This document shows positions 2,049 through 15,284 of a DNA stretch of 64,000 nt, in pieces. The translations under genes and the position numbers were made by a program. The notes under the pieces are model-generated. The model ran no database searches and was not told the DNA's origin. It was given only the letters and a program-made list of their open reading frames with translations. Position 1 is the first letter of the stretch, and each line of letters begins with the position of its first letter. This stretch comes from Candidatus Lustribacter sp. (GTDB lineage Bacteria; Vulcanimicrobiota; Vulcanimicrobiia; Vulcanimicrobiales; Vulcanimicrobiaceae), in NCBI GenBank assembly GCA_965277805.1, contig OZ255842.1, positions 3,520,001-3,584,000 on the forward strand, in the 5' to 3' direction.

Positions 2049-2582
2049 TTACGAGGATGATTCGCAGCGAAACCTGTCTGCCAAAGGCAGTTCTTCGCTG
2101 GCTGTACGGTGGGCTAGGCCATGATGAATGGAGCATAACCATGTAACTTCGAGCGGTTTAGTATAGTCGTCGTGGTGCGCTTGGACCTTTTCGGCGCCAC
2201 AAACTGCACAAGGTGAACGCTGAATATGACCGCCCTTGAGCCCATACATGACCGCGAAATGCGCGGCAGCTTTTAGGGGATTACGCGCTCGCCAATCATC
2301 AATGCTCTTTCGCACGTGCTGAGCATTTCGCGAATACCAAGTTCGTCGATATGCCGCAACGTGATCCAAATTTTCTTGTCGCCATGCTTCAGTCTTCGCT
2401 CGTAAGCGATCGCTGTTCTTTGCATAGAATTCGTAGTAAGATTGTTTCGAGCAAACGATACAATGGCTCCGTCGACCGTCACTCGAAGACGGATTTGTAT
2501 AGAACTGCTCAGGCTGCTTAAGTTCGCCGCAACGATTGCACGTTTTGGCTGCACCCGGACTGAGTCGTCGCGGCGCTCCCAT
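2049..2582 (-). CDS. Phage-type zinc-finger/HNH-like endonuclease
   Basis: N-terminal CxxC...CxxC and C-terminal CAVCG..AHHDDYTKPLEVTWLCSIHH; AT-richer than flanks. Confidence 0.7.
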   Translation of the reverse strand: MGAPRRLSPGAAKTCNRCGELKQPEQFYTNPSSSDGRRSHCIVCSKQSYYEFYAKNSDRLRAKTEAWRQENLDHVAAYRRTWYSRNAQHVRKSIDDWRARNPLKAAAHFAVMYGLKGGHIQRSPCAVCGAEKVQAHHDDYTKPLEVTWLCSIHHGLAHRTASEELPLADRFRCESSS

Positions 2583-2590
2583 CTTTACCT

Positions 2591-2624
2591 AGCGTAAGCG
2601 ATGGCAGTGCCAACAGTATGGCAC
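2591..2624 (-). promoter_or_regulatory. Palindromic operator/promoter GTGCCA-N6-TGGCAC-N10-TACGCT, 8 nt before the HNH ATG
   Basis: Same architecture and spacing at 3202-3235 and 14650-14683. Confidence 0.7.
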
Positions 2625-2627
2625 ATA

Positions 2628-2657
2628 CAAAAGGCCTCGTATAAGCGAGGCCTTTTG
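2628..2657. terminator. Bidirectional-type intrinsic terminator downstream of ssb
   Basis: caaaaggcctcg-tataag-cgaggccttttg hairpin with A and T tails. Confidence 0.8.
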
Positions 2658-2698
2658 CTCTTAGTTGTTTATCAAGTTTGTACTTGACTGCTAGAACG

Positions 2699-3151
2699 CT
2701 AGAACGGAATCTCGTCTTCAAGTGCGGCGTCTTCGTCGAAGCCGGCGGACGCCGATGCACCGGTACGCGCGGGTGCGGCTGAGCGTTCGTACGGTTCGCT
2801 GACGTCGCCGTTCATGCTGCGGCCTCCGCCGCCGGCACGATCGAGCATCTGCATCGTGTTGCACACGACTTCCGTTGCTTTGCGCTTTTCGCCGTCTTTC
2901 GTTTCATAAGAACGAATCGACAGACGGCCCTCGACCAGGCACGACATGCCCTTCTTCAGATACGTGTTGCACGTTTCTGCGAGCTTGTCCCAAGCGACGA
3001 TGTCGATGAAATCCGTCTCTTCTTGCTGCTTCGAGCGGCGATTGACCGCGAGCGTGAATTTGGTGACAGCTGCGCCGGAGCCGACGTAGCGGATCTCCGG
3101 GTCGCGGGTCAGATTTCCGACCAAGATAATTTTGTTATAGGATCCAGCGAT
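2699..3151 (-). CDS. ssb: Single-stranded DNA-binding protein, apparent non-canonical ATC start
   Basis: (M)AGSYNKIILVGNLTRDPE...EDEIPF; GAGGT lies 8 nt before ATC; in-frame TAA three codons upstream. Confidence 0.95.
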   Translation of the reverse strand: MAGSYNKIILVGNLTRDPEIRYVGSGAAVTKFTLAVNRRSKQQEETDFIDIVAWDKLAETCNTYLKKGMSCLVEGRLSIRSYETKDGEKRKATEVVCNTMQMLDRAGGGGRSMNGDVSEPYERSAAPARTGASASAGFDEDAALEDEIPF

Positions 3152-3201
3152 GACACGTTACCTCACTTAGATGCGCTGCCTACCGGTCAGCGCGCAAACT
3201 C

Positions 3202-3235
3202 ACTATGCGGGACCACAGTGCCACCTGCCTGGCAC
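3202..3235 (-). promoter_or_regulatory. Palindromic operator/promoter GTGCCA-N6-TGGCAC-N10-CATAGT upstream of ssb
   Basis: Extended palindrome acagtgcca-N6-tggcactgt (3215-3238) in the rpsF-ssb spacer. Confidence 0.7.
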
Positions 3236-3256
3236 TGTTGTCCACTGATTTCTACA

Positions 3257-3553
3257 CTACTTTTCCAATTTAATGAACAGGGCGCGCATCACGTCTTCGT
3301 TGAGACGCATCTGGCGTTCGAGCTCTTTCGAAGCGACGGCTTCGCTCTTGAACTTCATCACGACGTAGTAGCCTTCGCGAACATCGTCGATCTCATAGGC
3401 CAGGCGGCGCTTGCCCAGCTTCTCGATCTCGCCGACAACTTCACCGCCCTGGCCCTTGATGGACTCGGCGATGGCCTCGACGCGGGCGTCCATGTCGGTC
3501 TCTTCGAGCGCGGGACGCAGAATATAGGTGACTTCGTAGTCGATTGCGGGCAC
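3257..3553 (-). CDS. rpsF: 30S ribosomal protein S6
   Basis: YEVTYILRP...LGKRRLAYEI...EGYYVVM; upstream of ssb. Confidence 0.97.
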   Translation of the reverse strand: MPAIDYEVTYILRPALEETDMDARVEAIAESIKGQGGEVVGEIEKLGKRRLAYEIDDVREGYYVVMKFKSEAVASKELERQMRLNEDVMRALFIKLEK

Positions 3554-3646
3554 GGGGGTTTCCCTCTGCGGACACCAGCGGAGCCGGTGGGTCGGACGGG
3601 CCGACCAGCGGGTAGCGGACGGGCAGTGCCCGGCCAGAACCCCGGA

Positions 3647-3655
3647 AGTATATCA
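3647..3655 (-). promoter_or_regulatory. Extended -10 promoter (TGATATACT) for rpsF
   Basis: TGnTATACT match about 95 nt upstream of the rpsF start. Confidence 0.55.
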
Positions 3656-3712
3656 CGCCGAGGCGACCAACGCCAAGGGCGGAGAGGTCCGTGCCGCCAA
3701 GCCGCCCCTTCG

Positions 3713-4519
3713 ATGAAGATCCTCGCCTCCGCCCTCGCCGCCACGATCGCCGCCGCCGCGCTCGTGATGACGGCCCCGCCGGCGCCGGCCCGCGCCAACG
3801 TCTTCTGCCCGGTCACGATCGCCGCCGTCACCGACCTCGCCATCCTCGGCCGCCAAGACACCTACGGCGTGTTGCTCGACTTCGACCCCGGAGATACTGC
3901 GAGCGTCCGCATGCGTGTCGACTCTGCGACCACGCACTACGCGGTCGACTTCAATGATATCGGCCCGATCGGGAACGCCGCTTCGAGCGGCCGGCGCTAT
4001 TTCGTGATGCCGCCGGGCGAACGGCTCGTAACCGCGTGGATCGAGAGCACCGGGCTCAGCCCTAATTCGCGCATGGAGTGCCCGATCACGCGGCCGTATG
4101 CCGCCGATGCACCCCGGCCGGTGAATCCGCGCACGATCGCCGCTCTCGACGCCGCGCGTCAGGCATTGCGCGACAACTTCTCCACGAGAACGCCGACCGT
4201 GCAGCCGACGAGTTTCGGTGCGGCAACCGTTGCATCGTGCAGTCAGCCCTACGCTCCGCCGCGCGCGATTTTGCCCGTGCAGCCGGACGACATTCCCGCC
4301 GCGCGCGCCGTCCACGCGACCGGGACGACGGTCGTGCGCGTCGATCTCGATGAGACGAGCACCGTCGTGGGTGCCGGGATCGTCCGTTCGAGCGGCTACG
4401 CGCCATTGGATCGCGCCGCGCTGGCTGCAGCGCAGAAGTCGTCGTACCGCACCGAATCGTTTGCGTGCCGCCCGGTGGCCAGCACGTATCAGTTCACGGT
4501 GACGTTCGGCGGGAGTTAA
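3713..4519 (+). CDS. Secreted protein with TonB C-terminal domain
   Basis: Signal peptide MKILASALAATIAAAAL..ARA; C-terminal GTTVVRVDLD..IVRSSGYAPLDRAALAAA. Confidence 0.75.
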   Translation: MKILASALAATIAAAALVMTAPPAPARANVFCPVTIAAVTDLAILGRQDTYGVLLDFDPGDTASVRMRVDSATTHYAVDFNDIGPIGNAASSGRRYFVMPPGERLVTAWIESTGLSPNSRMECPITRPYAADAPRPVNPRTIAALDAARQALRDNFSTRTPTVQPTSFGAATVASCSQPYAPPRAILPVQPDDIPAARAVHATGTTVVRVDLDETSTVVGAGIVRSSGYAPLDRAALAAAQKSSYRTESFACRPVASTYQFTVTFGGS

Positions 4520-5121
4520 TTGGCGCCAAAGTCAAAGCGGCAGCGTAAACGGGCCCCGAACGCGTCTCGCGTCGACGGCCCGCTAACAGAACGCGAGCGC
4601 GAAGAGCTGCGCGCATACTTGGCATCACGGCCTGCATCGGATGACTGCATGAGCATCACCATGCTTCACGGTTTTCTCTGCGCGATTCTCTCGGGCCCGA
4701 TGATAATGCCCAACGAGTGGCTACCCGAGATATGGGGTGAGGAAGGACCTCGCTTCGATAGCGAGGTCCAAATGGGGCGTATCGTCGGCCTACTGATGCG
4801 CTTCTACAATGGCGTTGCCGATGAACTGGCCCGCAACCCGTTGCGTTTCAAACCCTTGCTCGATGTCTCGCTACCGAACGACGCTGAGGCCTGGTGCGCC
4901 GGCTACGTCCATGGCATGGCGGCTCGGGAAGATGCGTGGAGCCCCTCATGAAGGACCCCGGGACGGTCATGTTTTTTTCCCCGATCGTGTCGCTCGGTAT
5001 GCGCGGAGCAAACCCGGAGAACGACGAGATGCTGGCAGACACCGAGGCCTACGAGACCAGCGTCTCTTCGATAGGCAAGTGCGCCGGCGTCATTTACATG
5101 CTTTGGCGCGACCGAACGTGA
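4520..5121 (+). pseudogene. YecA/UPF0149-family protein split by a frameshift near 4938
   Basis: MSITMLHGFLCAI..PNEWLPEIWG and AEAWCAGYVHG; continues in another frame as EPLMKDP...W after ...gcgtggagcccctc. Confidence 0.6.
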
Positions 5122-5138
5122 GTTCAATTGCCATGATC

Positions 5139-5169
5139 GTGGCGGTCCCTCGACAAGCTCGGGATGACA
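5139..5169. repeat. REP-like interspersed element, identical to 54597..54627
   Basis: gtggcggtccctcgacaagctcgggatgaca, 31 of 31 positions identical. Confidence 0.85.
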
Positions 5170-5173
5170 GCGG

Positions 5174-7339
5174 TTAGTTGGCGCTGACTCGGGCTTCGCG
5201 TTTGGTGACGCGGTAGACGGCACGTACTTCTTTGAGGTGTTCGAGCTTGTAGAGCAGTTTCTGCAAGTGCTCGATGTTCGTGATTTGCGCGGTTATCGAG
5301 ATGTTCGCCGCCTCTTTTTTCACGCGCGCGTTGACCGAGGAAACCGGGGTCTTCAACTCGGCGCAGACGCCCATCACGTCTTGCAGTAGGCCGGAGCGGT
5401 CATTGGCTTCGATCTCGATGTCGACCGCGTGCTGGATGTGGGTGACGTCGGCCCACGTTGCTTCGAGGATACGTTCGGGTGCGGCGTTCATGTACGCCAC
5501 GTTCGGACAGTCCGCGCGATGGACCGAAACGCCGCGGCCGATCGTGACGAAGCCCATGATCGGGTCGCCCGGGACGGGCGAACAACACTTCGAGAGCCGC
5601 ACGAGCACGTCGTCGACGCCGGCGATGCGGATGCCCGATGCGTTGCGCGCTACACGACGCGTCGAGGTCGGGCGCGGCAGCGTCTGGATGTCGACGACGT
5701 TGTCGGTCTTGAGTTCTTCGCGCAGGCGTTTGGCAACCGAGGCCGCGTTGGCGTCGCCAAAGCCGATCGCCGCGTAGAGGTCGTTGGCCGTGGCGTAGTT
5801 CAGCTTGCCGGCAATTTTCTCGATCACGTCGCCGCGCGCGGAGTCGATGCGCAAGCCGAGATGGACGAGCTCGCTCTCGAGCATCTCTTGCCCGAGCACC
5901 GCGTTCTCTTCTTTCTTCTCTTTACGGAACCACTGTTTGATCTTGTGCTTCGCGCCGGACGTCTTGACGATCGAGAGCCAATCCAGCGACGGGCGCGCGC
6001 TCGACTTGTTGACGAGCACCTCGACGATGTCGCCGTTCTTCAATCCGAAGTCGAGCGGCACGATCTTGCCGTTGACCTTCGCGCCCACGCAATGATTCCC
6101 GACGCCGGAGTGCACTTGGTAGGCGAAGTCGAGCGGCGTCGCGCTTGCAGGCAGCGAGAACACATCGCCCTTGGGCGAGAAGATGAACACCTGCGACTCG
6201 AACAAGTCGAGCTTGAGGTTCTCCATGAACATCCGCGAGTCGCGCATGTCGTTCTGCCACTCGAGCAGCGAACGCAGCCAGGTGAGCTTCTGCTCGAAGG
6301 TGTCGCCCTTGGCGCCTTCTTTGTATCGCCAGTGTGCGGCGATGCCGTACTCGCTCGTGCGGTGCATCTCGAGCGTGCGGATTTGCACTTCGAGCGGATC
6401 GCCGCCCGGCCCGACGACCGTCGTGTGCAAAGACTGGTACATGTTGGGCTTGGGCATCGCGATGTAATCTTTGAAGCGCCCCGGCAGCGGCTTCCAGATC
6501 GAGTGCACGACGCCCAACGCGCCGTAACAATCCTTGACCGAATCGACGATGATGCGGACGGCCGTCAAATCGTAGATGGTCGAGAAGTCGCGGCCCTTCT
6601 GCATCTTCTTGTGAATCGAGTAGAAGTGCTTGGGACGGCCGTTGACTTCCGCATGCAGACCGATCGCTTCGAACTGGCCCTTGAGCTCGTCGAGCACGCG
6701 TTGCACGGCGGCTTCGCGTTCGCCGCGTTTCTTCGCGACGCGTTCGGCGATATCGTGATACGCCGCCGGATCGAGGTAGCGCAGCGAGAGATCTTCGAGA
6801 TCCCACTTCATGCGCCAAATGCCCAAGCGATGCGCGATCGGGGCGTAGATCTCGATCGTCTCTTGGGCGATCGTCTGCTGCTTCGCCGGCGGGAGCGATC
6901 CCAGCGTGCGCATGTTGTGCAGCCGGTCGGCGAGCTTGATGATGATGACGCGGATGTCCTTAGCCATCGCCAGGAACATCTTGCGCAAGTTCTCGACCTG
7001 CGCGTCTTCCTTCGTCTGATACGGAATGCGCGTCAGCTTGGTGACGCCGTCGACGAGCGAGGCGATCTCCTCACCGAAGCGTTCGCCGACTTCTTCGCTC
7101 GTGATGACCGTGTCTTCGACGACGTCGTGCAGCAGCGCGGCGGCGATCGTCTGGCGGTCCATTTCGAGATCGGCCAGGATCGCGGCAACGGCCAGCGGGT
7201 GCTCGATGTACGATTCGCCCGAGGCCCGGCGCTGCTCGCGGTGCGCGCCCTCGGCAACAGCATATACGCTCTCGAGCCACGCGGGGTCGAGGGAGGGGTC
7301 ATAACGGCGAACATTAGCAACGAGATCCGCGATCGTCAT
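5174..7339 (-). CDS. relA: Bifunctional (p)ppGpp synthetase/hydrolase (Rel/RSH)
   Basis: HD motif LLHDVVED, IKLADRLHNMRTL, KPNMYQSLHTTV, TGS and ACT domains. Confidence 0.97.
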   Translation of the reverse strand: MTIADLVANVRRYDPSLDPAWLESVYAVAEGAHREQRRASGESYIEHPLAVAAILADLEMDRQTIAAALLHDVVEDTVITSEEVGERFGEEIASLVDGVTKLTRIPYQTKEDAQVENLRKMFLAMAKDIRVIIIKLADRLHNMRTLGSLPPAKQQTIAQETIEIYAPIAHRLGIWRMKWDLEDLSLRYLDPAAYHDIAERVAKKRGEREAAVQRVLDELKGQFEAIGLHAEVNGRPKHFYSIHKKMQKGRDFSTIYDLTAVRIIVDSVKDCYGALGVVHSIWKPLPGRFKDYIAMPKPNMYQSLHTTVVGPGGDPLEVQIRTLEMHRTSEYGIAAHWRYKEGAKGDTFEQKLTWLRSLLEWQNDMRDSRMFMENLKLDLFESQVFIFSPKGDVFSLPASATPLDFAYQVHSGVGNHCVGAKVNGKIVPLDFGLKNGDIVEVLVNKSSARPSLDWLSIVKTSGAKHKIKQWFRKEKKEENAVLGQEMLESELVHLGLRIDSARGDVIEKIAGKLNYATANDLYAAIGFGDANAASVAKRLREELKTDNVVDIQTLPRPTSTRRVARNASGIRIAGVDDVLVRLSKCCSPVPGDPIMGFVTIGRGVSVHRADCPNVAYMNAAPERILEATWADVTHIQHAVDIEIEANDRSGLLQDVMGVCAELKTPVSSVNARVKKEAANISITAQITNIEHLQKLLYKLEHLKEVRAVYRVTKREARVSAN

Positions 7340-7382
7340 AGGATCTAAGCCTTACAACCCGCCGCATGCCGCATAAGGTGCG

Positions 7383-7895
7383 TCAGTACGTGATGAACGA
7401 CGTGATATCCACGCCGGGCAGGGCCTTGCGGCCGTTGAGGTCAGCCAGCTCGATCAGCACGGCCACGCCGGCGATCTTGGCCTCGAGGCGCGCCAGCAGC
7501 CGCAGGGTGGCGGCCATGGTGCCACCGGTGGCAAGCAGGTCGTCGATCACAAGCACGCGCTTGCCCTTGGTCACGGCGTCGGCGTGGATCTCGATCGTGT
7601 TGGTGCCGTACTCGAGCTCGTATTCTTCGGTGAACTTCTCGCCGGGCAGTTTGCCGGGCTTGCGCACCGGCACGAAACCGGCATTCAGAGCATACGCGAC
7701 CGGCGCGCCGAGCATGTAGCCGCGAGCCTCGATGCCGACCACATATTCAATGCCTGCACCGCGGTATTTGTCGACAAACAGGTCGACCATCGCCTTGAAG
7801 CCGGCGGCGTCGCCGAGTAACGGTGTGATATCGCGGAAAAGAATCCCGGGAATGGGAAAATCCGGTATCGCGCGGATCAAAGCTTCGAGCTGCAC
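7383..7895 (-). CDS. apt: Adenine phosphoribosyltransferase
   Basis: IPDFPIPGILFRDITPLL, GIEARGY, VIDDLLATGGT; GTG at 7895. Confidence 0.96.
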   Translation of the reverse strand: MQLEALIRAIPDFPIPGILFRDITPLLGDAAGFKAMVDLFVDKYRGAGIEYVVGIEARGYMLGAPVAYALNAGFVPVRKPGKLPGEKFTEEYELEYGTNTIEIHADAVTKGKRVLVIDDLLATGGTMAATLRLLARLEAKIAGVAVLIELADLNGRKALPGVDITSFITY

Positions 7896-7958
7896 GCCCC
7901 GGCGTTCGCCCCATTCGAACGGGAACCCCGCGGCACGCTCGAATCGTTGTGCCTGCGC

Positions 7959-8765
7959 ATGAAGACAAAAGTCGGAGCACCGGCCTTCGACGATCCCGTC
8001 AGGCGCTTCGCCGTTGCCGTCCCGAGTGCCATCGTTATTACGGTGTTGTGCTTTGCGCTGGGCCGCTGCCAACCGGCTGAACGCTCGGTCACCGAAAGCG
8101 CGCCGCCCGCTACCGTGGTGCTCGAACGCCGGCCGCCGACCCCGACACCGGCCCCGCCAACCCCCACGCCGCGTCCGCCGACACCGCCGCCCACCTTACC
8201 GCCGGTCCCGCGCGTGACGCTCGCGCCGGTTCCCGAGCGCGCGGCGCCCCGTGCCGTCCATGCCTCGGGCGGCGGACACGCCGCGCCCAAGCCGCATCCG
8301 CAGGTCGTGATGCCGTCGGTGGTCGTCGCGGGGAGCGGTGGCGGCGCCGGGACGGGAACCGGCGATGGTGAGGGCGCAGGCAACGCCGGCGGCAGCGGCA
8401 ACGGCACGGGCGGCACCGGCAGCGGAACGGTCAATGCCGATGCGCCGTGCGGCAGCGTCGATCTGATCCCGGTCCAATCGCCCGATCATGCGGGCGCGCT
8501 CACCTACGAGCACATCCGCGCCACCGTGACGTTTCCGGACGGCCACACGCAGACGGACGAGTTTCCCTATCGCTGGGTCTACGCCAACCCGGCCGACGAT
8601 CCGTGGTCGACGCAAAACATGTCCAATGCGAACTTCATCACGCGTGTCCAGCAGCCGCCGTCCAGCGCCGACGTGAGCCGCTACCCGGAAACCATTCGCT
8701 ACATCCTCAACCACACGCGTTCCGACGGCACGACGATCCTCCAAGAGTGTCCGCAGCAGCATTAG
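7959..8765 (+). CDS. Membrane-anchored Pro/Gly-rich hypothetical protein (TonB-like architecture)
   Basis: One hydrophobic segment, PPTPTP linker, Gly-rich tract, small C-terminal domain. Confidence 0.6.
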   Translation: MKTKVGAPAFDDPVRRFAVAVPSAIVITVLCFALGRCQPAERSVTESAPPATVVLERRPPTPTPAPPTPTPRPPTPPPTLPPVPRVTLAPVPERAAPRAVHASGGGHAAPKPHPQVVMPSVVVAGSGGGAGTGTGDGEGAGNAGGSGNGTGGTGSGTVNADAPCGSVDLIPVQSPDHAGALTYEHIRATVTFPDGHTQTDEFPYRWVYANPADDPWSTQNMSNANFITRVQQPPSSADVSRYPETIRYILNHTRSDGTTILQECPQQH

Positions 8766-9946
8766 CGCTGCGCTAACGCTTCGAGCCGCGCGTAGAACGC
8801 GTCGATCGCGCTGCCATGTGCCGCCAGCGCGCGCTGCGCTCCGGCCACGCGATCCTCACGCTCGCCCGCGCTCGTTTCGAGTGCGTTGCGGATGGCGCCG
8901 AGCCAATCGTCGTCATCCGAAATGAACAGCGTCGCAGCGACGTCCGGCGGAAGACCCGTGACGCCGGCCGTCGTCGAAAGAACCGGAACGCCGGCGCCGA
9001 TGTAGTCGAGCATCTTCATATTGACGCCGCCGGTAAACCGCACCGGATTCACGGCCAGATCGGCCAGTGCCAAGAGCGCGGCGAGTTCATCGCCGGTAAC
9101 GATCCCGAGCACGCGCATGTTTTTCGGCCGGCTGCGACGATCGAGTTCACCCGCAACGTTGCCGGCTACGACGAACTCCATGTCCGGCGCGCGCACGGCA
9201 ACGCCGGCGAGTTCGCGTGCGGCAAGAACATTCGGCCAGTGCGAGCTCCCGACAAACAAGACGACCGGCCGGTCGCCGAAGCGTGAACGGCGGCGCGTGG
9301 TTCGCGCGTCAATCGACGGCGGCGCAAACTTGGCCGGGTCCCCAAACGGTGGAACGACGATCACATCGCGCAGACCGGGGTAGCGAGCGGTGAGCGCTCG
9401 CGCAACGTCATTGGAAATGGCAAACGTGAGTTGCGCGCGGCGCACGGCGCGCGTCTCGAGCGCGGCGACCTGCTGCAATAACGCGGCACCGCGCTCGTTA
9501 CTCGGCAAATGCGCCTCCATTAGCCGCACTTCGTCGTCCATCGCCTCGTATACAAGCGGCCCGTTCCACGCGTGTTCGATCGCAGATATGAGATATGGCC
9601 GGGAAGCAATCATAATATCGGCGTCGGCCGCGTTTGCGCGCAGCCGCTCGACATAGCCCGGCGTGAGGCGCGGCGTCTCGTCAGCTAACACGTCGTCGAC
9701 AACGACGCCCAGTGATTTTGATACGCTACCGTACGAACGTTGCTGCGCTTTGCTCGTGGCGAAGCGTTCTTCGACAATACCGGCGTACGGTCGACTTTTC
9801 TTGCTCGGGGTGTTGTAAGGCGTGAGCGCAACGATTACGATCTCAGCACCCGTGTCGGCAAGCGCACAATAAACATCTGCCATTCGCCGTTGACCGCCGC
9901 TCGTTGCTGGGAACACTGCAAACGTCGTGGCAACCACGATCCGCAT
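8762..9946 (-). CDS. Glycosyltransferase (GT4-like)
   Basis: LFVGSSHWPN, ADLAVNPVRFTGGVNMKMLDY. Confidence 0.85.
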   Translation of the reverse strand: MRIVVATTFAVFPATSGGQRRMADVYCALADTGAEIVIVALTPYNTPSKKSRPYAGIVEERFATSKAQQRSYGSVSKSLGVVVDDVLADETPRLTPGYVERLRANAADADIMIASRPYLISAIEHAWNGPLVYEAMDDEVRLMEAHLPSNERGAALLQQVAALETRAVRRAQLTFAISNDVARALTARYPGLRDVIVVPPFGDPAKFAPPSIDARTTRRRSRFGDRPVVLFVGSSHWPNVLAARELAGVAVRAPDMEFVVAGNVAGELDRRSRPKNMRVLGIVTGDELAALLALADLAVNPVRFTGGVNMKMLDYIGAGVPVLSTTAGVTGLPPDVAATLFISDDDDWLGAIRNALETSAGEREDRVAGAQRALAAHGSAIDAFYARLEALAQR

Positions 9947-9996
9947 CCGACTCGATTACCGCAGCGAATCGGCGCACCCTTTGGAGAAAATATCCG

Positions 9997-11025
9997 TTGA
10001 TCCGCGTTGGCATTGACGCGTGGAATCTACCGAACGATCTTCGTGGCATCGGCCGCTACGTTCGCGAAATGGTAAAGTGCTTGCGCAGCGAGCACGGCAG
10101 CGAAGTCGCGTGCACGCTCGTCATTCCGGAATGGCCACCGACGCTCGCAAGCAGGCGCTATCTGCGCGCAATCGGCGACGCAACGCTGCCGGTAGTGTCA
10201 CGTCGTGTCGCGCGGCAACGCCGTTTCGACTTGCTTTGGTTTCCGTTCAACGGACCCAGCTGGGACGATTTTCGCGGACCGTCGGTGGCGACGCTGCACG
10301 ACGCGCTCACATTTGCGCTGCCGGGTTTTTCCGACGAAGCGCGCGCTCCGTTCCGGCGCGCTGCCGAGCGCTGCGAACACATCGTCACGGACTCGGAGTT
10401 TTCGCGCACCGAACTGTTGCGCGTTTTGCCGCTGGAGCCCGAACGCATCAGCGTCGTCCTGCCGGGTGTCGCACCGCTGCCGGTGGGCACCCCGGCGATC
10501 GACATCGCTTCGCTGGGCTCGTATTTGCTCTTCGTCGGCGAAACCGATTCGCGCAAGGGCGTCGACCGGTTCATCGCTGCAGCGGAGTTGCTGCGGGCGC
10601 GGGGGATCGACGTCACCTGCGTGATTGCGGGCCGGGTCGTCGGCTCGTTGCCCGCGCCGGACGGCGTGAACGTGCGCGCGCTCGGATTTGTCGACGACGT
10701 CACCTTGCAGGCGCTCTACCGCGGCTGCAGCGCGTTCGTGTATCCGTCGCGCTACGAGGGCTTCGGGCTGCCGATCCTCGAGGCGCTGCTCGCCGGGGCT
10801 CCTGTCGTCGCGAGCGCGGGCTCGTCGCTCATCGAGGCGGGCGGGGATGCGGCACTCTACGCGCCGGCCGATGACACGGCCGCCTTCGCCGAGGCCGTGC
10901 AACGCATTTTCAGCGATGCGGCGCTCGCCGAGGCTCTGCGCCGGCGCGGCATCGAACGCGCCCGGACGATGAGCTGGTCACGGTCAGCCGGAGCGCTGGT
11001 CGACGTCTTCCGGAAAGTCGCCTAG
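9997..11025 (+). CDS. Glycosyltransferase family 4
   Basis: RGIGRYVRE, FVYPSRYEGFGLPILEA. Confidence 0.9.
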   Translation: MIRVGIDAWNLPNDLRGIGRYVREMVKCLRSEHGSEVACTLVIPEWPPTLASRRYLRAIGDATLPVVSRRVARQRRFDLLWFPFNGPSWDDFRGPSVATLHDALTFALPGFSDEARAPFRRAAERCEHIVTDSEFSRTELLRVLPLEPERISVVLPGVAPLPVGTPAIDIASLGSYLLFVGETDSRKGVDRFIAAAELLRARGIDVTCVIAGRVVGSLPAPDGVNVRALGFVDDVTLQALYRGCSAFVYPSRYEGFGLPILEALLAGAPVVASAGSSLIEAGGDAALYAPADDTAAFAEAVQRIFSDAALAEALRRRGIERARTMSWSRSAGALVDVFRKVA

Positions 11026-11076
11026 GCAACCGGCCGCACAAGGAGGTCGCGCCCGCAACGAAAAGGACGTTCGAGC

Positions 11077-12307
<1,231 letters not shown>

Positions 12308-12324
12308 GGGGTAGTTCGAACAAT

Positions 12325-13281
12325 ATGAAGGTCGTAGTGGCTGGCCAAGGTGCTTTTGGTCAGAAGCATCTCGATGGGATCGCGCGCATCGACGGCGTGG
12401 AAGTCGCCTCGCTCGTCGGCGGCAATCAGGAATCGACGAAGGCCGTAGCGGCGAAGTACGGCATCCCGCACTACACGGGCGATCTCGCCGAAGCGCTCGC
12501 GCAGCCCGGTGTCGAGGCCGCGATCCTCGCGACGCCGACGCAGATGCACGCGAAGCAGGGCGAACAAGTGATGCGCGCCGGCAAACACGTCGAGATCGAA
12601 ATTCCGGTCTCGGACACGCTGGCCGAAGCCGAACGTCTCGTGGCCGTCCAAAAGGAAACCGGCATGATCGGCATGGGCGGTCACACGCGCCGTTTCAACC
12701 CAAGCCATCAATACATCCACAACAAGATCAAGGCGGGCGAACTCACGGTACTGCAGATGGACGTGCAAACGTACTTCTTCCGCCGTACCAACATGAACGC
12801 CGCCGGCCAGCCGCGCAGTTGGACCGACCATCTTCTCTGGCACCATGCCTGTCACACGGTCGATCTCTTCCAGTACCAAACCGGCGGAACCGCAACCGTC
12901 GCGCATGCCGTCGAAGGCCCGATGGATCCGAACCTCAAGATCGCGATGGATATGGGCATCTTGATGAAGGTGCCGAGCGGCGCGATCTGCACGCTCTCGC
13001 TCTCGTTCAACAATGACGGCCCGTTCGGAACGTTTTTCCGCTACATCTGCGACAACGGCACGTACCTCGCCTATTACGACGATCTCAGCGACGGCAAGGG
13101 CAATAAGATCGATCTGACCGGCGTGGCCGTCTCGTTCGACGGCATCGAACTGCAAGACCGCGAGTTCTTCTCGGCGATCAAAGAAAAACGCGAACCCAAC
13201 GCCAGCTTCGCCCAAATCCTACCCGCCATGCAAACCCTCGACAAACTCGATAAAGACATGGGCGGCTCACCCCGCGCCTAA
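12325..13281 (+). CDS. ligC: 4-carboxy-2-hydroxymuconate-6-semialdehyde dehydrogenase (Gfo/Idh/MocA family)
   Basis: GHTRRFNPSHQ, RSWTDHLLWHHACHTVDLF; follows ligAB. Confidence 0.88.
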   Translation: MKVVVAGQGAFGQKHLDGIARIDGVEVASLVGGNQESTKAVAAKYGIPHYTGDLAEALAQPGVEAAILATPTQMHAKQGEQVMRAGKHVEIEIPVSDTLAEAERLVAVQKETGMIGMGGHTRRFNPSHQYIHNKIKAGELTVLQMDVQTYFFRRTNMNAAGQPRSWTDHLLWHHACHTVDLFQYQTGGTATVAHAVEGPMDPNLKIAMDMGILMKVPSGAICTLSLSFNNDGPFGTFFRYICDNGTYLAYYDDLSDGKGNKIDLTGVAVSFDGIELQDREFFSAIKEKREPNASFAQILPAMQTLDKLDKDMGGSPRA

Positions 13282-13283
13282 TC

Positions 13284-13955
13284 GTGCCTGACACGCCCTA
13301 CGGCATGCCGCCATACGTGATCGAACGCGTGATGGCGAAGCGCGGGCGATTGGCGGTCTTCGAGCGGTTTGACCCGCTCAAGACCGCGCTGCTGTGCATC
13401 GACATGCAGTATTTCTACGTCGGTGAGATCCCCTCGGTGCTCGCGATCATTCCGAACATCAACCGCATCGCGAAACGGCTCCGCGAACTCGGCGGCTTGA
13501 TCGTTTGGGTCGGGATGAGCGCCGGCGAAAACGGCGAGAGCCGCTGGCACGTCTATCACGACAACTTCTTCACCCCCGAACGGGGCGCCAATCACCGCGA
13601 CGGCCTCTCGCCCGGTCACCCCGCGCACGCGTTTCACGCCGATCTCGACATCCAACCGTCGGATGAGATCGTCTATAAATCGCGTTTCAGCCCGTTCATC
13701 GCGGGCGCATCGAACATTCAGGACGTCCTGCAGCCGCACGGAATCGAGAACCTCATCGTCGTTGGAACCGCCACGAATATGTGCTGCGAATCGGCGGCGC
13801 GCGACGCGATGATGCTCGATTACAAAGTCGTGATGGTCGCGGATGCCAACGGCGCGCGCTATGACGACGACCACCTGGCCGGATTGACGAGTTTCTATCA
13901 GAGTTTCGGTGACGTGCGCACGACCGCAGAGGTCACCGATTCGCTGCTAGCCTGA
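13284..13955 (+). CDS. Isochorismatase-family cysteine hydrolase
   Basis: ALLCIDMQ, KSRFSPF, GTATNMCCES. Confidence 0.85.
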   Translation: MPDTPYGMPPYVIERVMAKRGRLAVFERFDPLKTALLCIDMQYFYVGEIPSVLAIIPNINRIAKRLRELGGLIVWVGMSAGENGESRWHVYHDNFFTPERGANHRDGLSPGHPAHAFHADLDIQPSDEIVYKSRFSPFIAGASNIQDVLQPHGIENLIVVGTATNMCCESAARDAMMLDYKVVMVADANGARYDDDHLAGLTSFYQSFGDVRTTAEVTDSLLA

Positions 13956-13956
13956 G

Positions 13957-14544
13957 CTACGGCGCCGGCCGGTTCGTAACTACGTTCCACTGCAGTTTGG
14001 TGAGCGTGTCGCTCGTCAGCGGCTTGGTCGTATCGACCTTTGCCTGCTCGTAGGCAACTTGGGCGTAGTTGATATCGAAGGTGTCAACGAGCTTGCCCTT
14101 CGAGTTTGCGGTGATTTGCGACGATGTGATGTAGACATTTTTCATGATGAACAGCTGGTAGGGCACGACCTTGCCGCTGACGTTCTTGCCGATGACGAGC
14201 ACCAGTTCCGGAAGGTGCTTATCGCTGATGGCATCTTGCGTCAGTACGTTGGCGGCCTCGGAATCCGCTCCGGTGACGGTCATGGACTCCATCGTCGCTT
14301 TGCCGGCGCCCGCGCCGGTGGATTGGCTGCCGATATTTTCCGGATGACCGACGCCGATTGAGAAACTCGTGACTTTGTACATATCCGCCGGTTTTTGCGT
14401 AATCTCGCCCTTGGGCTCGGAACCCTCGATTTGACCGGGCGGAATTTTGAGATAGTACACGTCCGCGAACGCCGGCGCGGCGATTGCCGTTACGGCGAAG
14501 ACGGAGAGGGCGCCGGCGATTCGCGCAAACAAGGATGATTTCAT
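13957..14544 (-). CDS. Hcp (T6SS tube)-like protein with N-terminal signal peptide; orphan
   Basis: VTSFSIGV..IGSQSTGAGAGKAT, KNVYITSSQ, INYAQV, WNVVTN; signal ..AVTAIAAPAFA. Confidence 0.75.
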   Translation of the reverse strand: MKSSLFARIAGALSVFAVTAIAAPAFADVYYLKIPPGQIEGSEPKGEITQKPADMYKVTSFSIGVGHPENIGSQSTGAGAGKATMESMTVTGADSEAANVLTQDAISDKHLPELVLVIGKNVSGKVVPYQLFIMKNVYITSSQITANSKGKLVDTFDINYAQVAYEQAKVDTTKPLTSDTLTKLQWNVVTNRPAP

Positions 14545-14649
14545 AAAGGACTCCCATCAGAAGAACCAGGTGGCCGGTTGCGTCTTTGGCGCGGTGGGAA
14601 CCGTCCCATGGCAAGCGAGCCATTGCCCGCTGGGACGGCACGATTCGGA

Positions 14650-14683
14650 ATGCCACCCAGGTGGCACTAGCGGGCGCGATACT
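14650..14683 (+). promoter_or_regulatory. Palindromic operator/promoter ATGCCA-N6-TGGCAC-N10-GATACT, 7 nt before the exonuclease ATG
   Basis: Same architecture as the sites before ssb and the HNH gene. Confidence 0.7.
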
Positions 14684-14690
14684 GCGGCCT

Positions 14691-15284
14691 ATGTCCGCTT
14701 TGCCGATCCGGGCGGGTCGCTTCGCCTTCGTCGACGTCGAAACGACCGGTTTCGACCCGAGCAAGTGCGCGGTCGTCGAGGTGGCATGCCAAATCGTCGA
14801 GGCGGGTGAGATCGTCGCGACGTTCGAGTCGCTGGTCAACCCGCTGCGTGGCATCCCCTCGTTCGTGCAGGCGATCCACGGCATCCACGACGGCATGGTG
14901 TGGGGGCAGCCGCACATGCGCGAGCTCGTCCCCACCCTGCGCCGGCTCTGCCGCGGCGCCGTGATCGTGGCGCACAACGCCGATTTCGACCGCCGCTTTC
15001 TGCCGTTCTTGGCCGCGCAGCCCTCGGCGTGCTCGTGGCGGCTCGCCTCGCTCGTGGTGCCTGAAGCGCCGAATCACAAGAATCAGACGCTCGGCAACTT
15101 TTTCGGCGTGGACGATCCGCAGTTGGACGGCCGCCGGCCGCACCGCGCGCTCGCCGACGTGATCGTCACGCGGCACGTGTTCTTCCACTGCATCGAACGC
15201 TACGTCGCGGCAGGCAACGGCGATAACCTCGAAGCGCTGTTCGACTTTCTGCAGCCGAAGTATCTGCGCGACCAACCGGCGTAA
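14691..15284 (+). CDS. DEDDh 3'-5' exonuclease (DnaQ-like)
   Basis: FVDVETTG, VAHNADFD, HRALAD. Confidence 0.9.
   Translation: MSALPIRAGRFAFVDVETTGFDPSKCAVVEVACQIVEAGEIVATFESLVNPLRGIPSFVQAIHGIHDGMVWGQPHMRELVPTLRRLCRGAVIVAHNADFDRRFLPFLAAQPSACSWRLASLVVPEAPNHKNQTLGNFFGVDDPQLDGRRPHRALADVIVTRHVFFHCIERYVAAGNGDNLEALFDFLQPKYLRDQPA

Follow-up and report, generated by a model that had tools for sequence, protein, structure and literature searches.

A shared palindromic promoter of DNA-handling genes in Candidatus Lustribacter and its candidate WYL-type regulator

Introduction

Transcription factors of the WYL family have been associated with a distinctive promoter architecture at DNA-damage genes. In Caulobacter crescentus, the homodimer DriD is described as covering the -35 position by binding the palindrome ATACGAC-N7-GTCGTAT; the distance of this palindrome from the -10 element is the same in all DriD promoters, none of which has a -35 box (PMC13004042). 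In Actinobacteria, PafBC is reported to fit the housekeeping holoenzyme for promoters without a -35 box, which carry a -10 box together with an element at -23 to -28 contacted by PafB (PMC8635444). In the Moraxellaceae, the published account of DdaA gives the site CGWCA-N5-TGWCG before recA, ssb and repair genes (PMC12392091). The present study concerns a comparable element, the palindrome TGCCA-N6-TGGCA with a -10-like hexamer ten nucleotides (nt) further on, which occurs three times in a 64,000-nt stretch of the genome of Candidatus Lustribacter sp. (assembly GCA_965277805.1, contig OZ255842.1). This stretch, G000:C1:3520001-3584000 in the coordinates used here, is referred to as the window; the genome is a single contig of 5.53 Mb with 64% G+C.

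It is probable that this palindrome is read by WYL1, a WYL protein encoded elsewhere in the genome, acting as a homodimeric activator similar to DriD and PafBC and switching on damage genes independently of LexA. The geometry was compared with that of the DriD, PafBC and DdaA promoters as described in running text; at that level it matches the published DriD and PafBC promoters in the lack of a -35 box, a site over the -35 position and a fixed distance from the -10 element. A sequence-only reading of the window had likened the arrangement to PafBC. The kind of WYL promoter was recognized properly, but homodimeric DriD with its palindromic site is, as far as these descriptions go, the closest published parallel and fits better than the heterodimeric PafBC. 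DriD and WYL1 share the same fold and domain order, namely winged helix-turn-helix (wHTH), three-helix bundle (3HB), then WYL and lastly WCX, and the described DriD targets resemble those found here in combining DNA-handling genes with a cell-division-related gene (didA in Caulobacter, a LysM gene here). Nonetheless, the two proteins are only about 18% identical, their sites differ in sequence and spacing, and recA and ssb are predicted targets here. DriD itself activates an SOS-independent damage response.

PafBC, which works by sigma adaptation through a -26 element, shows other similarities. PafB is the best sequence and fold match of WYL1, its described contact at -23 to -28 coincides with the promoter-proximal half-site of the palindrome (PMC8635444), the promoters keep a canonical -10 without a -35 box, and PafBC likewise coexists with a LexA/Cheo-box regulon. 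It differs in being a heterodimer from two adjacent genes that recognizes a non-palindromic element, whereas a single gene and a two-fold symmetric site are found here. The same comparative approach led to DdaA, a WYL activator whose 5-N5-5 palindrome is described before a similar set of genes (PMC12392091); unlike that system, the site here is promoter-internal and LexA has been kept. CapW and BrxR also have the wHTH-WYL-WCX fold and bind inverted repeats as homodimers, but they are repressors of defence systems located beside a single target operon, and they match the fold of WYL1 less closely (1e-9 and 8e-9, against 4e-15 for PafB). The Cheo box of LexA shares the physiological theme of the palindrome, and this genome has both elements upstream of recA as well as in the lexA region. 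It is distinguished by its sequence (CGAAC-N4-GTTCG), its variable position in the promoter, its gene set (imuA, imuB, dnaE2 and alkB) and a far wider taxonomic range.

Promoter architecture in the window and the genome

The three promoters and the genes behind them are as follows, with positions counted from the first letter of the window and scores from the position weight matrix (PWM) described below.

2607-2624, minus strand: palindrome GTGCCA-tactgt-TGGCAC, promoter of the HNH-like gene, proposed WYL-regulator site, 29.8 bits
2591-2596, minus strand: -10 hexamer TACGCT, N10 (tgccatcgct) after the palindrome, with the ATG (2580-2582) 8 nt further on
2049-2582, minus strand: Cys-rich gene of 177 amino acids, HNH-like by a weak motif match
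3218-3235, minus strand: palindrome GTGCCA-ggcagg-TGGCAC between rpsF and ssb, 30.7 bits
3202-3207, minus strand: -10 hexamer CATAGT of the ssb promoter, N10 (tgtggtcccg) after the palindrome
2699-3151, minus strand: ssb (Pfam SSB, 6e-33)
14650-14667, plus strand: palindrome ATGCCA-cccagg-TGGCAC, promoter of the exonuclease/TM0106 operon, 30.4 bits
14678-14683, plus strand: -10 hexamer GATACT, N10 (tagcgggcgc) after the palindrome and 7 nt before the ATG at 14691, a leaderless arrangement
14691-15284, plus strand: DEDD (DnaQ/RNase T-like) 3'-5' exonuclease, 197 amino acids
15294-18695, plus strand: TM0106-family RecB-like nuclease fused to an SF1 helicase, 1133 amino acids

These sites were found exactly as the sequence-only reading had written them, in coordinates, intergenic position and N10-spaced hexamers. 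Its further claim that all three precede DNA-handling genes holds for ssb and for the exonuclease/TM0106 operon; the HNH label of the gene at 2049-2582 stood less well, with no Pfam or NCBIfam family matched and a C-x2-C...HH...C-x2-HH stretch aligning with an HNH_3-positive relative at E 0.03. The 8 nt separating hexamer and ATG suggest a leaderless transcript for this gene. The window has three copies of the core TGCCA-N6-TGGCA, whereas 100 shuffles gave 0.01 on average and never as many as three.

A similar excess has been detected in the whole genome, where the core occurs 11 times at spacing 6 and 0-3 times at each other spacing from 0 to 14. The longer form GTGCCA-N6-TGGCAC is found six times without mismatch at spacing 6, compared with 0-1 at spacings 2-10; with one mismatch there are 11 copies, compared with 2-5 at other spacings. 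A PWM trained solely on 67 sites from relatives gave ten matches of at least 20 bits in this genome and no match in the reversed-genome control; the ten are composite promoters that read RTGCCA-nnCAGT-TGGCAC-N10-TAnnnT. The copies, about ten in number, are all promoter-located, and their targets are dispersed. The regulon they define is made up of DNA repair and replication genes: the matches precede recA (a perfect palindrome), ssb, the DEDD exonuclease/TM0106 operon, a PD-(D/E)XK nuclease gene (PDDEXK_5, 1.9e-31) and three HNH-like genes that are not close paralogues, one of them frameshifted and two lying among seven tRNA genes. Further matches stand before a 53-amino-acid zinc-ribbon gene and before a 152-amino-acid gene without assigned function, which carries a Cheo box as well; the remaining match, in the lexA region, precedes a small LysM gene that is divergent from lexA. 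Five relatives have this promoter type before recA, TM0106 nucleases, HNH/HNH_3 proteins, TnpB (OrfB_IS605) genes and small proteins, with the TM0106 gene directly behind it in three loci (L110, L112 and L187). The genome scan proposed in the earlier reading has placed the motif before recA and other DNA-handling genes genome-wide.

The spacing between palindrome and hexamer, which that reading had derived from three promoters, proved to be strongly phased among relatives. In 34 sites from five relatives, giving 68 oriented tails after TGGCAC, TAnnnT lies at offset 10 in 16 tails and in 0-2 at any other offset, and the looser nAnnnT in 27 tails against at most 8 elsewhere. The hexamer is mostly present in one orientation of the palindrome alone. 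A logo of 76 unique oriented sites reads (A/T)RTGCCA-nnCAGT-TGGCAC-(T/A)C-N8-TAnnnT, with an asymmetric spacer and no -35-like consensus. When the hexamer is placed at -12 to -7, the half-sites fall at -40 to -35 and -28 to -23 and straddle the -35 position. The spacing from site to canonical -10 element is fixed in these promoters, which lack a -35 box; the recA and ssb promoters of relatives show the same layout. The lexA promoter, which is under LexA control, does have a -35 box by eye (TTGCAT-N17/18-TAGGAT). In 18 of 33 rows from relatives, the start codon of an open reading frame of at least 45 amino acids lies 6-10 nt past the hexamer; for this genome, 5 of 12 rows have a start codon at that distance. 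The often seen distance of 6-8 nt suggests leaderless transcripts. Nine RNA runs matched 0.05-0.07 of the sampled words, as small contig fragments, and such contigs cannot show a transcription start.

Two of the genes with perfect palindrome promoters belong to a low-GC island (L004 2300-5300, G000:C1:1599300-1602300), in which seven tRNA genes are interleaved with HNH-like genes. The HNH-like gene at about 3330-3622 of that locus, on the minus strand, is frameshifted, with its N-terminal zinc ribbon and its DH...N...CANCH part in different frames.

Conservation among relatives

Conservation was followed in two motif-bearing families (f1 and f2) of the window's order, which belongs to the phylum Eremiobacterota, in the sister family (f3) and in 69 genomes of other families of the phylum. 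A recA site with at most one core mismatch is found in 22 of 23 f1/f2 genomes and in none of six f3 genomes, always 262-298 nt before the P-loop codons, and a recA site is also present in 19 of 20 further WYL1-positive f1 genomes. Of 24 genomes, 18 have kept the ssb site. Exact copies of the 18-mer are present in 197/296 f1, 5/5 f2, 3/30 f3 and 7/69 other genomes, with a reversed control pattern mostly at 0-1. By these sequence comparisons, motif and geometry are conserved before recA, ssb and lexA/LysM across the family and the order; neither the sister family nor the remainder of the phylum was found to have them. The tallies of the 18-mer, of the ArsR-type protein, of WYL1 in f1 genomes lacking the 18-mer and of WYL2 include genomes flagged as unpublished (G248, G231, G264, G238, G329, G246, G330, G360, G345, G128, G233 and G276). 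G276 alone among them was used individually (WYL1 present, recA site with one mismatch), and omitting the flagged set shifts the counts by at most those genomes.

A variant of the site has been detected in the ssb loci of genus g4 (L256-L258, L269-L272, L274 and L275), where the right half reads TGACAC in place of TGGCAC in all 10 loci. It represents a conserved weaker half-site, not decay.

The candidate regulator WYL1

The sequence-only reading had noted that no WYL-type regulator is encoded in the window, and the candidate indeed lies outside it. The genome encodes two WYL proteins. The first, WYL1 (wHTH-WYL-WCX, G000:C1:2551780-2552835), probably starts at a GTG giving 326 amino acids. Pfam identifies its WYL (2.8e-19) and WCX (1.4e-13) domains, and a structural model places a winged helix at the N-terminus, with a mean predicted local distance difference test (pLDDT) score of 72.7; the candidate thus has all three domains expected of the family. 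The best matches among PDB sequences are PafB (5e-10), PafBC (2e-9) and DriD (2e-8). A Foldseek search with the model returned PafB (4e-15), DriD (about 1e-14), CapW (1e-9) and BrxR (8e-9), aligned over the full length with PafB and DriD. The recognition helix PSTRSLRRYL is invariant among orthologues. Two arginines of the WYL strand region, R198 and R202 of A1, are also invariant and align with arginines of PafB, which hints at activation by single-stranded DNA (ssDNA) or damage. In public annotations the orthologues are named merely 'WYL domain-containing protein', 'YafY' or 'proteasome accessory factor B'.

The distribution of WYL1 follows that of the motif. Orthologues occur in 21/22 f1, 1/1 f2 and 0/22 f3 genomes, and among the 69 genomes of other families no match reached E 1e-25, the best being 25-30% identical. 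WYL1 is also present in 21 of 24 f1 genomes picked for having no exact 18-mer, and is missing from G077, G280 and G129. The first two have neither WYL1 nor a recA site, and 0 composite sites each. A RecA tree places the two together (support 90/82; the branch of G077 is long), and their absences are probably a single loss. Across genomes, regulator and motif co-occur, with the exception of G129 and G079. The RecA of G077 (L167) itself has a branch of 0.58 against a median of 0.046, and its recA gene carries a Cheo box in place of the palindrome.

Other candidate regulators were set aside. WYL2 (L012), the second WYL protein, does not track the motif (f1 8/22, f2 0/1, f3 18/22), and close orthologues of the ArsR-type helix-turn-helix protein divergent from recA are sporadic and missing in the same-genus G145. 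A DdrO-like circuit was dropped, no Peptidase_M78 (IrrE/ImmA-type protease) being found in the genome, and a second S24 match is a signal peptidase (S26). No convincing autoregulatory site before WYL1 was found at its own or at orthologue loci.

LexA, Cheo boxes and the divergent LysM gene

The genome also contains lexA, with a one-mismatch palindrome and two Cheo boxes of the Gram-positive type upstream of it in the same region. The nearest relatives of this LexA come from metagenome-assembled genomes named Candidatus Lustribacter, Vulcanimicrobiota, Eremiobacteraeota or WPS-2 (92-94% identity), followed by those of Firmicutes and Actinobacteria (50-59%). Enrichment of Cheo boxes by simple mismatch counts is uninformative in this GC-rich genome; a stricter pattern was used instead and gave a clear intergenic family, TCGAACATACGTTCGA. 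Its members precede lexA, dnaE2-like, imuB-like and imuA-like genes, an AlkB-like oxygenase gene and a class II ribonucleotide reductase gene, which by sequence is the classical SOS set. Among 55 lexA loci of Eremiobacterota, at least one Cheo box with at most one mismatch is found in 55/55 and a second in 54/55. The palindrome is present in the lexA/LysM region of 48 of these 55 loci and in none of 11 loci from other phyla. Before recA, Cheo boxes occur in just six genomes of the f1/f2/f3 recA set, most relatives having the palindrome alone; in this genome recA is under both. Because LexA has its own boxes before lexA, imuA, imuB, dnaE2 and alkB, the palindrome can be regarded as a second, LexA-independent circuit. 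This separation is in line with the earlier reading, which had proposed an activator, possibly of the WYL type, for the regulon.

The site near lexA faces away from lexA. On the lexA side the palindrome is immediately next to the ribosome-binding site, with no hexamer behind it. On the opposite strand the hexamer nACGCT is conserved at N10 and the spacer is ccCAGT, as in the oriented consensus. That direction leads into a gene for a 95-amino-acid LysM protein with a signal peptide, located as follows.

L008 1932-2219 (G000:C1:3634279-3634566), plus strand: LysM gene encoding a small secreted protein, divergent from lexA, with two Cheo boxes in its leader

Damage-induced division inhibitors of the LysM type are also encoded divergently from lexA in Bacillus subtilis (yneA) and Mycobacterium tuberculosis (chiZ). 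By analogy with this layout, the LysM gene is a candidate damage-induced division inhibitor.

Several Cheo-box genes have features of their own. The class II ribonucleotide reductase gene (L244 367-5046; G000:C1:1457866-1462545, minus strand; 1559 amino acids) contains an intein with a LAGLIDADG domain, and its Cheo box lies at 1462603. The dnaE2-like, imuB-like and imuA-like genes (L246, L247 and L248, at about 4.37, 4.40 and 4.55 Mb) each have a perfect Cheo box of their own and are scattered over about 180 kb, in contrast to the usual cassette.

Proposed mechanism

In the proposed mechanism, WYL1 would be an order-specific homodimeric wHTH-WYL-WCX factor, a relative of DriD and of PafB/PafC, with the palindrome as its DNA site. 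This site would form part of the composite promoter (A/T)RTGCCA-nnCAGT-TGGCAC-N10-TAnnnT, its half-sites straddling the absent -35 box, and transcription would probably start 6-8 nt past the hexamer, in many cases on the start codon itself. Following the analogy of DriD, PafBC and DdaA, we infer that DNA damage is the signal: ssDNA arising from it would bind the WYL domain and free the wHTH domains to bind the palindrome, after which the bound WYL1 would recruit the housekeeping RNA polymerase. Activation of this kind would switch on recA, ssb, the exonuclease/nuclease-helicase operon, the PD-(D/E)XK nuclease, the HNH-like genes and the LysM gene without LexA, which runs its own Cheo-box regulon in the same cell.

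A number of observations weigh against this reading. The three-helix-bundle part of the WYL1 model is of low confidence. G129 has a recA site and four composite sites although WYL1 was not found in it (94% complete, 210 contigs), while G079 has WYL1 and a degenerate recA site. The co-occurrence amounts to about two independent events, a gain at the base of the order and the loss in G077 and G280, so any order-specific gene would correlate equally well. No clear palindrome was detected within 300 nt before WYL1, and sites with at most one mismatch occur in 2 of 20 orthologue loci. Finally, the lexA-proximal site is placed in the lexA 5' leader beside the ribosome-binding site, a position typical of repression, and the WYL repressors CapW and BrxR have the same fold.

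Alternative explanations

The last two points lead to the alternative that fares best, although it is rather unlikely: the regulator would be WYL1 with the opposite sign, a repressor sitting over the -35 region and in the lexA leader that leaves the DNA on binding ssDNA. CapW, besides sharing the fold, is described as an ssDNA-sensing repressor (PMC11662680); the centre of the site, at about -31.5, is within the polymerase footprint, and the lexA-proximal copy lies between the Cheo-box promoter and the ribosome-binding site. A repressor would need neither the exact N10 phasing in unrelated promoters nor the lack of a -35 box, which are the signature of activation of the DriD/PafBC type. WYL1 is also nearer to PafB and DriD than to CapW and BrxR and, unlike those two, is not encoded beside its target: no site is present within 300 nt of it, and the targets are dispersed. 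Moreover, the site in the lexA region is directed at the divergent LysM gene and has its conserved hexamer at N10 on that side.

Improbable, though with real points in its favour, is that another transcription factor of equal taxonomic range binds the palindrome and that WYL1 is a bystander. WYL1, WYL2 and the ArsR-type protein are the only three candidates profiled, and both the sites of G129 and the small number of evolutionary events would suit such a factor. Against it stand the membership of WYL1 in the one family known for exactly this promoter architecture at DNA-damage genes, and the lack of competitors among the IrrE/ImmA-type proteases and S24 matches mentioned above.

It is very unlikely that the palindrome represents a second or divergent LexA box and the gene set an SOS regulon, even with a copy upstream of lexA and another before recA. 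LexA, at 50-59% identity to its Firmicutes and Actinobacteria counterparts, has conserved Cheo boxes that fill the autoregulatory role in 55/55 loci, while the palindrome is absent from 7/55 and from 11/11 loci of other phyla; relatives outside the order keep lexA and Cheo boxes without it, and the site beside lexA points away from that gene.

A non-regulatory origin in mobile elements, as an IS200/IS605 end hairpin or a repetitive extragenic palindromic (REP)-like repeat, seems no more credible. TnpB and HNH genes are often downstream of the site, and in G105 19 of 21 exact sites are one identical 18-mer in a repeat of about 200 bp beside TnpB; that repeat alone has the character of a mobile element. 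The copies in this genome are all promoter-located, the recA, ssb and lexA/LysM sites stay at fixed positions across genera in unrelated flanks, copy number is near 10 per genome, and the three HNH-like genes of this genome are not close paralogues. Two copies of the G105 repeat (L099 and L109, about 1458-1660 in each) are 95.6% identical, and the one in L109 supplies a leaderless TnpB (OrfB_IS605) gene with its promoter and 5' end. It seems that a mobile element took up the host damage promoter, or the reverse.

TGGCAC is the consensus of the sigma-54 -24 element. Recognition by sigma-54 or another alternative sigma factor is nevertheless the least credible of these explanations, since no Sigma54_DBD or rpoN was found in the genome, four of five sites by eye lack the GC at -12 (GG-N10-GC), the left half-site is left unexplained and the 10-nt gap is too short for -35/-10 recognition. 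An RNA hairpin was also rejected, the palindrome being upstream of the start in leaderless promoters and the lexA-region copy keeping a T·T mismatch without compensating change.

Implications

Soils, bogs and polar deserts harbour abundant Eremiobacterota (WPS-2), nearly all of them uncultured. A literature search found no paper joining Eremiobacterota and LexA, and one on WYL factors with TGGCA sites gave irrelevant matches alone. A regulon, a candidate regulator and a precise promoter grammar are now on hand for this phylum. Following Actinobacteria, Caulobacter and Moraxellaceae, it would be the fourth lineage to have recA/ssb run by a WYL factor, here a candidate one, beside or instead of LexA, which supports the view that a WYL factor replacing the -35 box is a general bacterial solution. 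The putative pairing of the half-site TGCCA with the helix PSTRSLRRYL may be of use in work on the DNA specificity of WYL proteins, and the TnpB and HNH genes may be a case in which mobile genes use the damage promoter of their host.

A more speculative extension, which we hold to be doubtful, is that the single WYL1 site in the lexA leader acts in two directions, the ssDNA-loaded factor starting the LysM gene, as a division inhibitor of the YneA/ChiZ kind, from the N10 hexamer of the opposite strand while physically blocking LexA re-synthesis, and that TnpB/IS605 elements (up to 19 copies) and HNH nucleases captured the promoter and fire only on genome breakage. If the two-way switch were true, both damage circuits would be hard-wired together.

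Additional features of the window

The neighbourhood of ssb contains two further features.

3257-3553, minus strand: rpsF (ribosomal protein S6), upstream of the ssb promoter
2629-2660, minus strand: GC-rich hairpin with a T-run directly 3' of ssb, seen by eye

The hairpin is likely the ssb terminator, parting ssb from the promoter of the HNH-like gene. In ssb, the codon at 3149-3151 (minus strand) reads ATC; the homologous codon is an ATG start in all 26 relatives' loci (M-A-G-S-Y/F-N...). A GAGGT Shine-Dalgarno sequence lies 9 nt upstream of it, and the first canonical start, a TTG at 3124, would remove nine conserved residues. Either a rare ATC start or an assembly error would account for this. 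Two other genes are without the motif: a type VI secretion Hcp-like gene (13957-14544, minus strand), which diverges from the exonuclease promoter, as well as a full-length RelA/SpoT gene nearby (5174-7339, minus strand).

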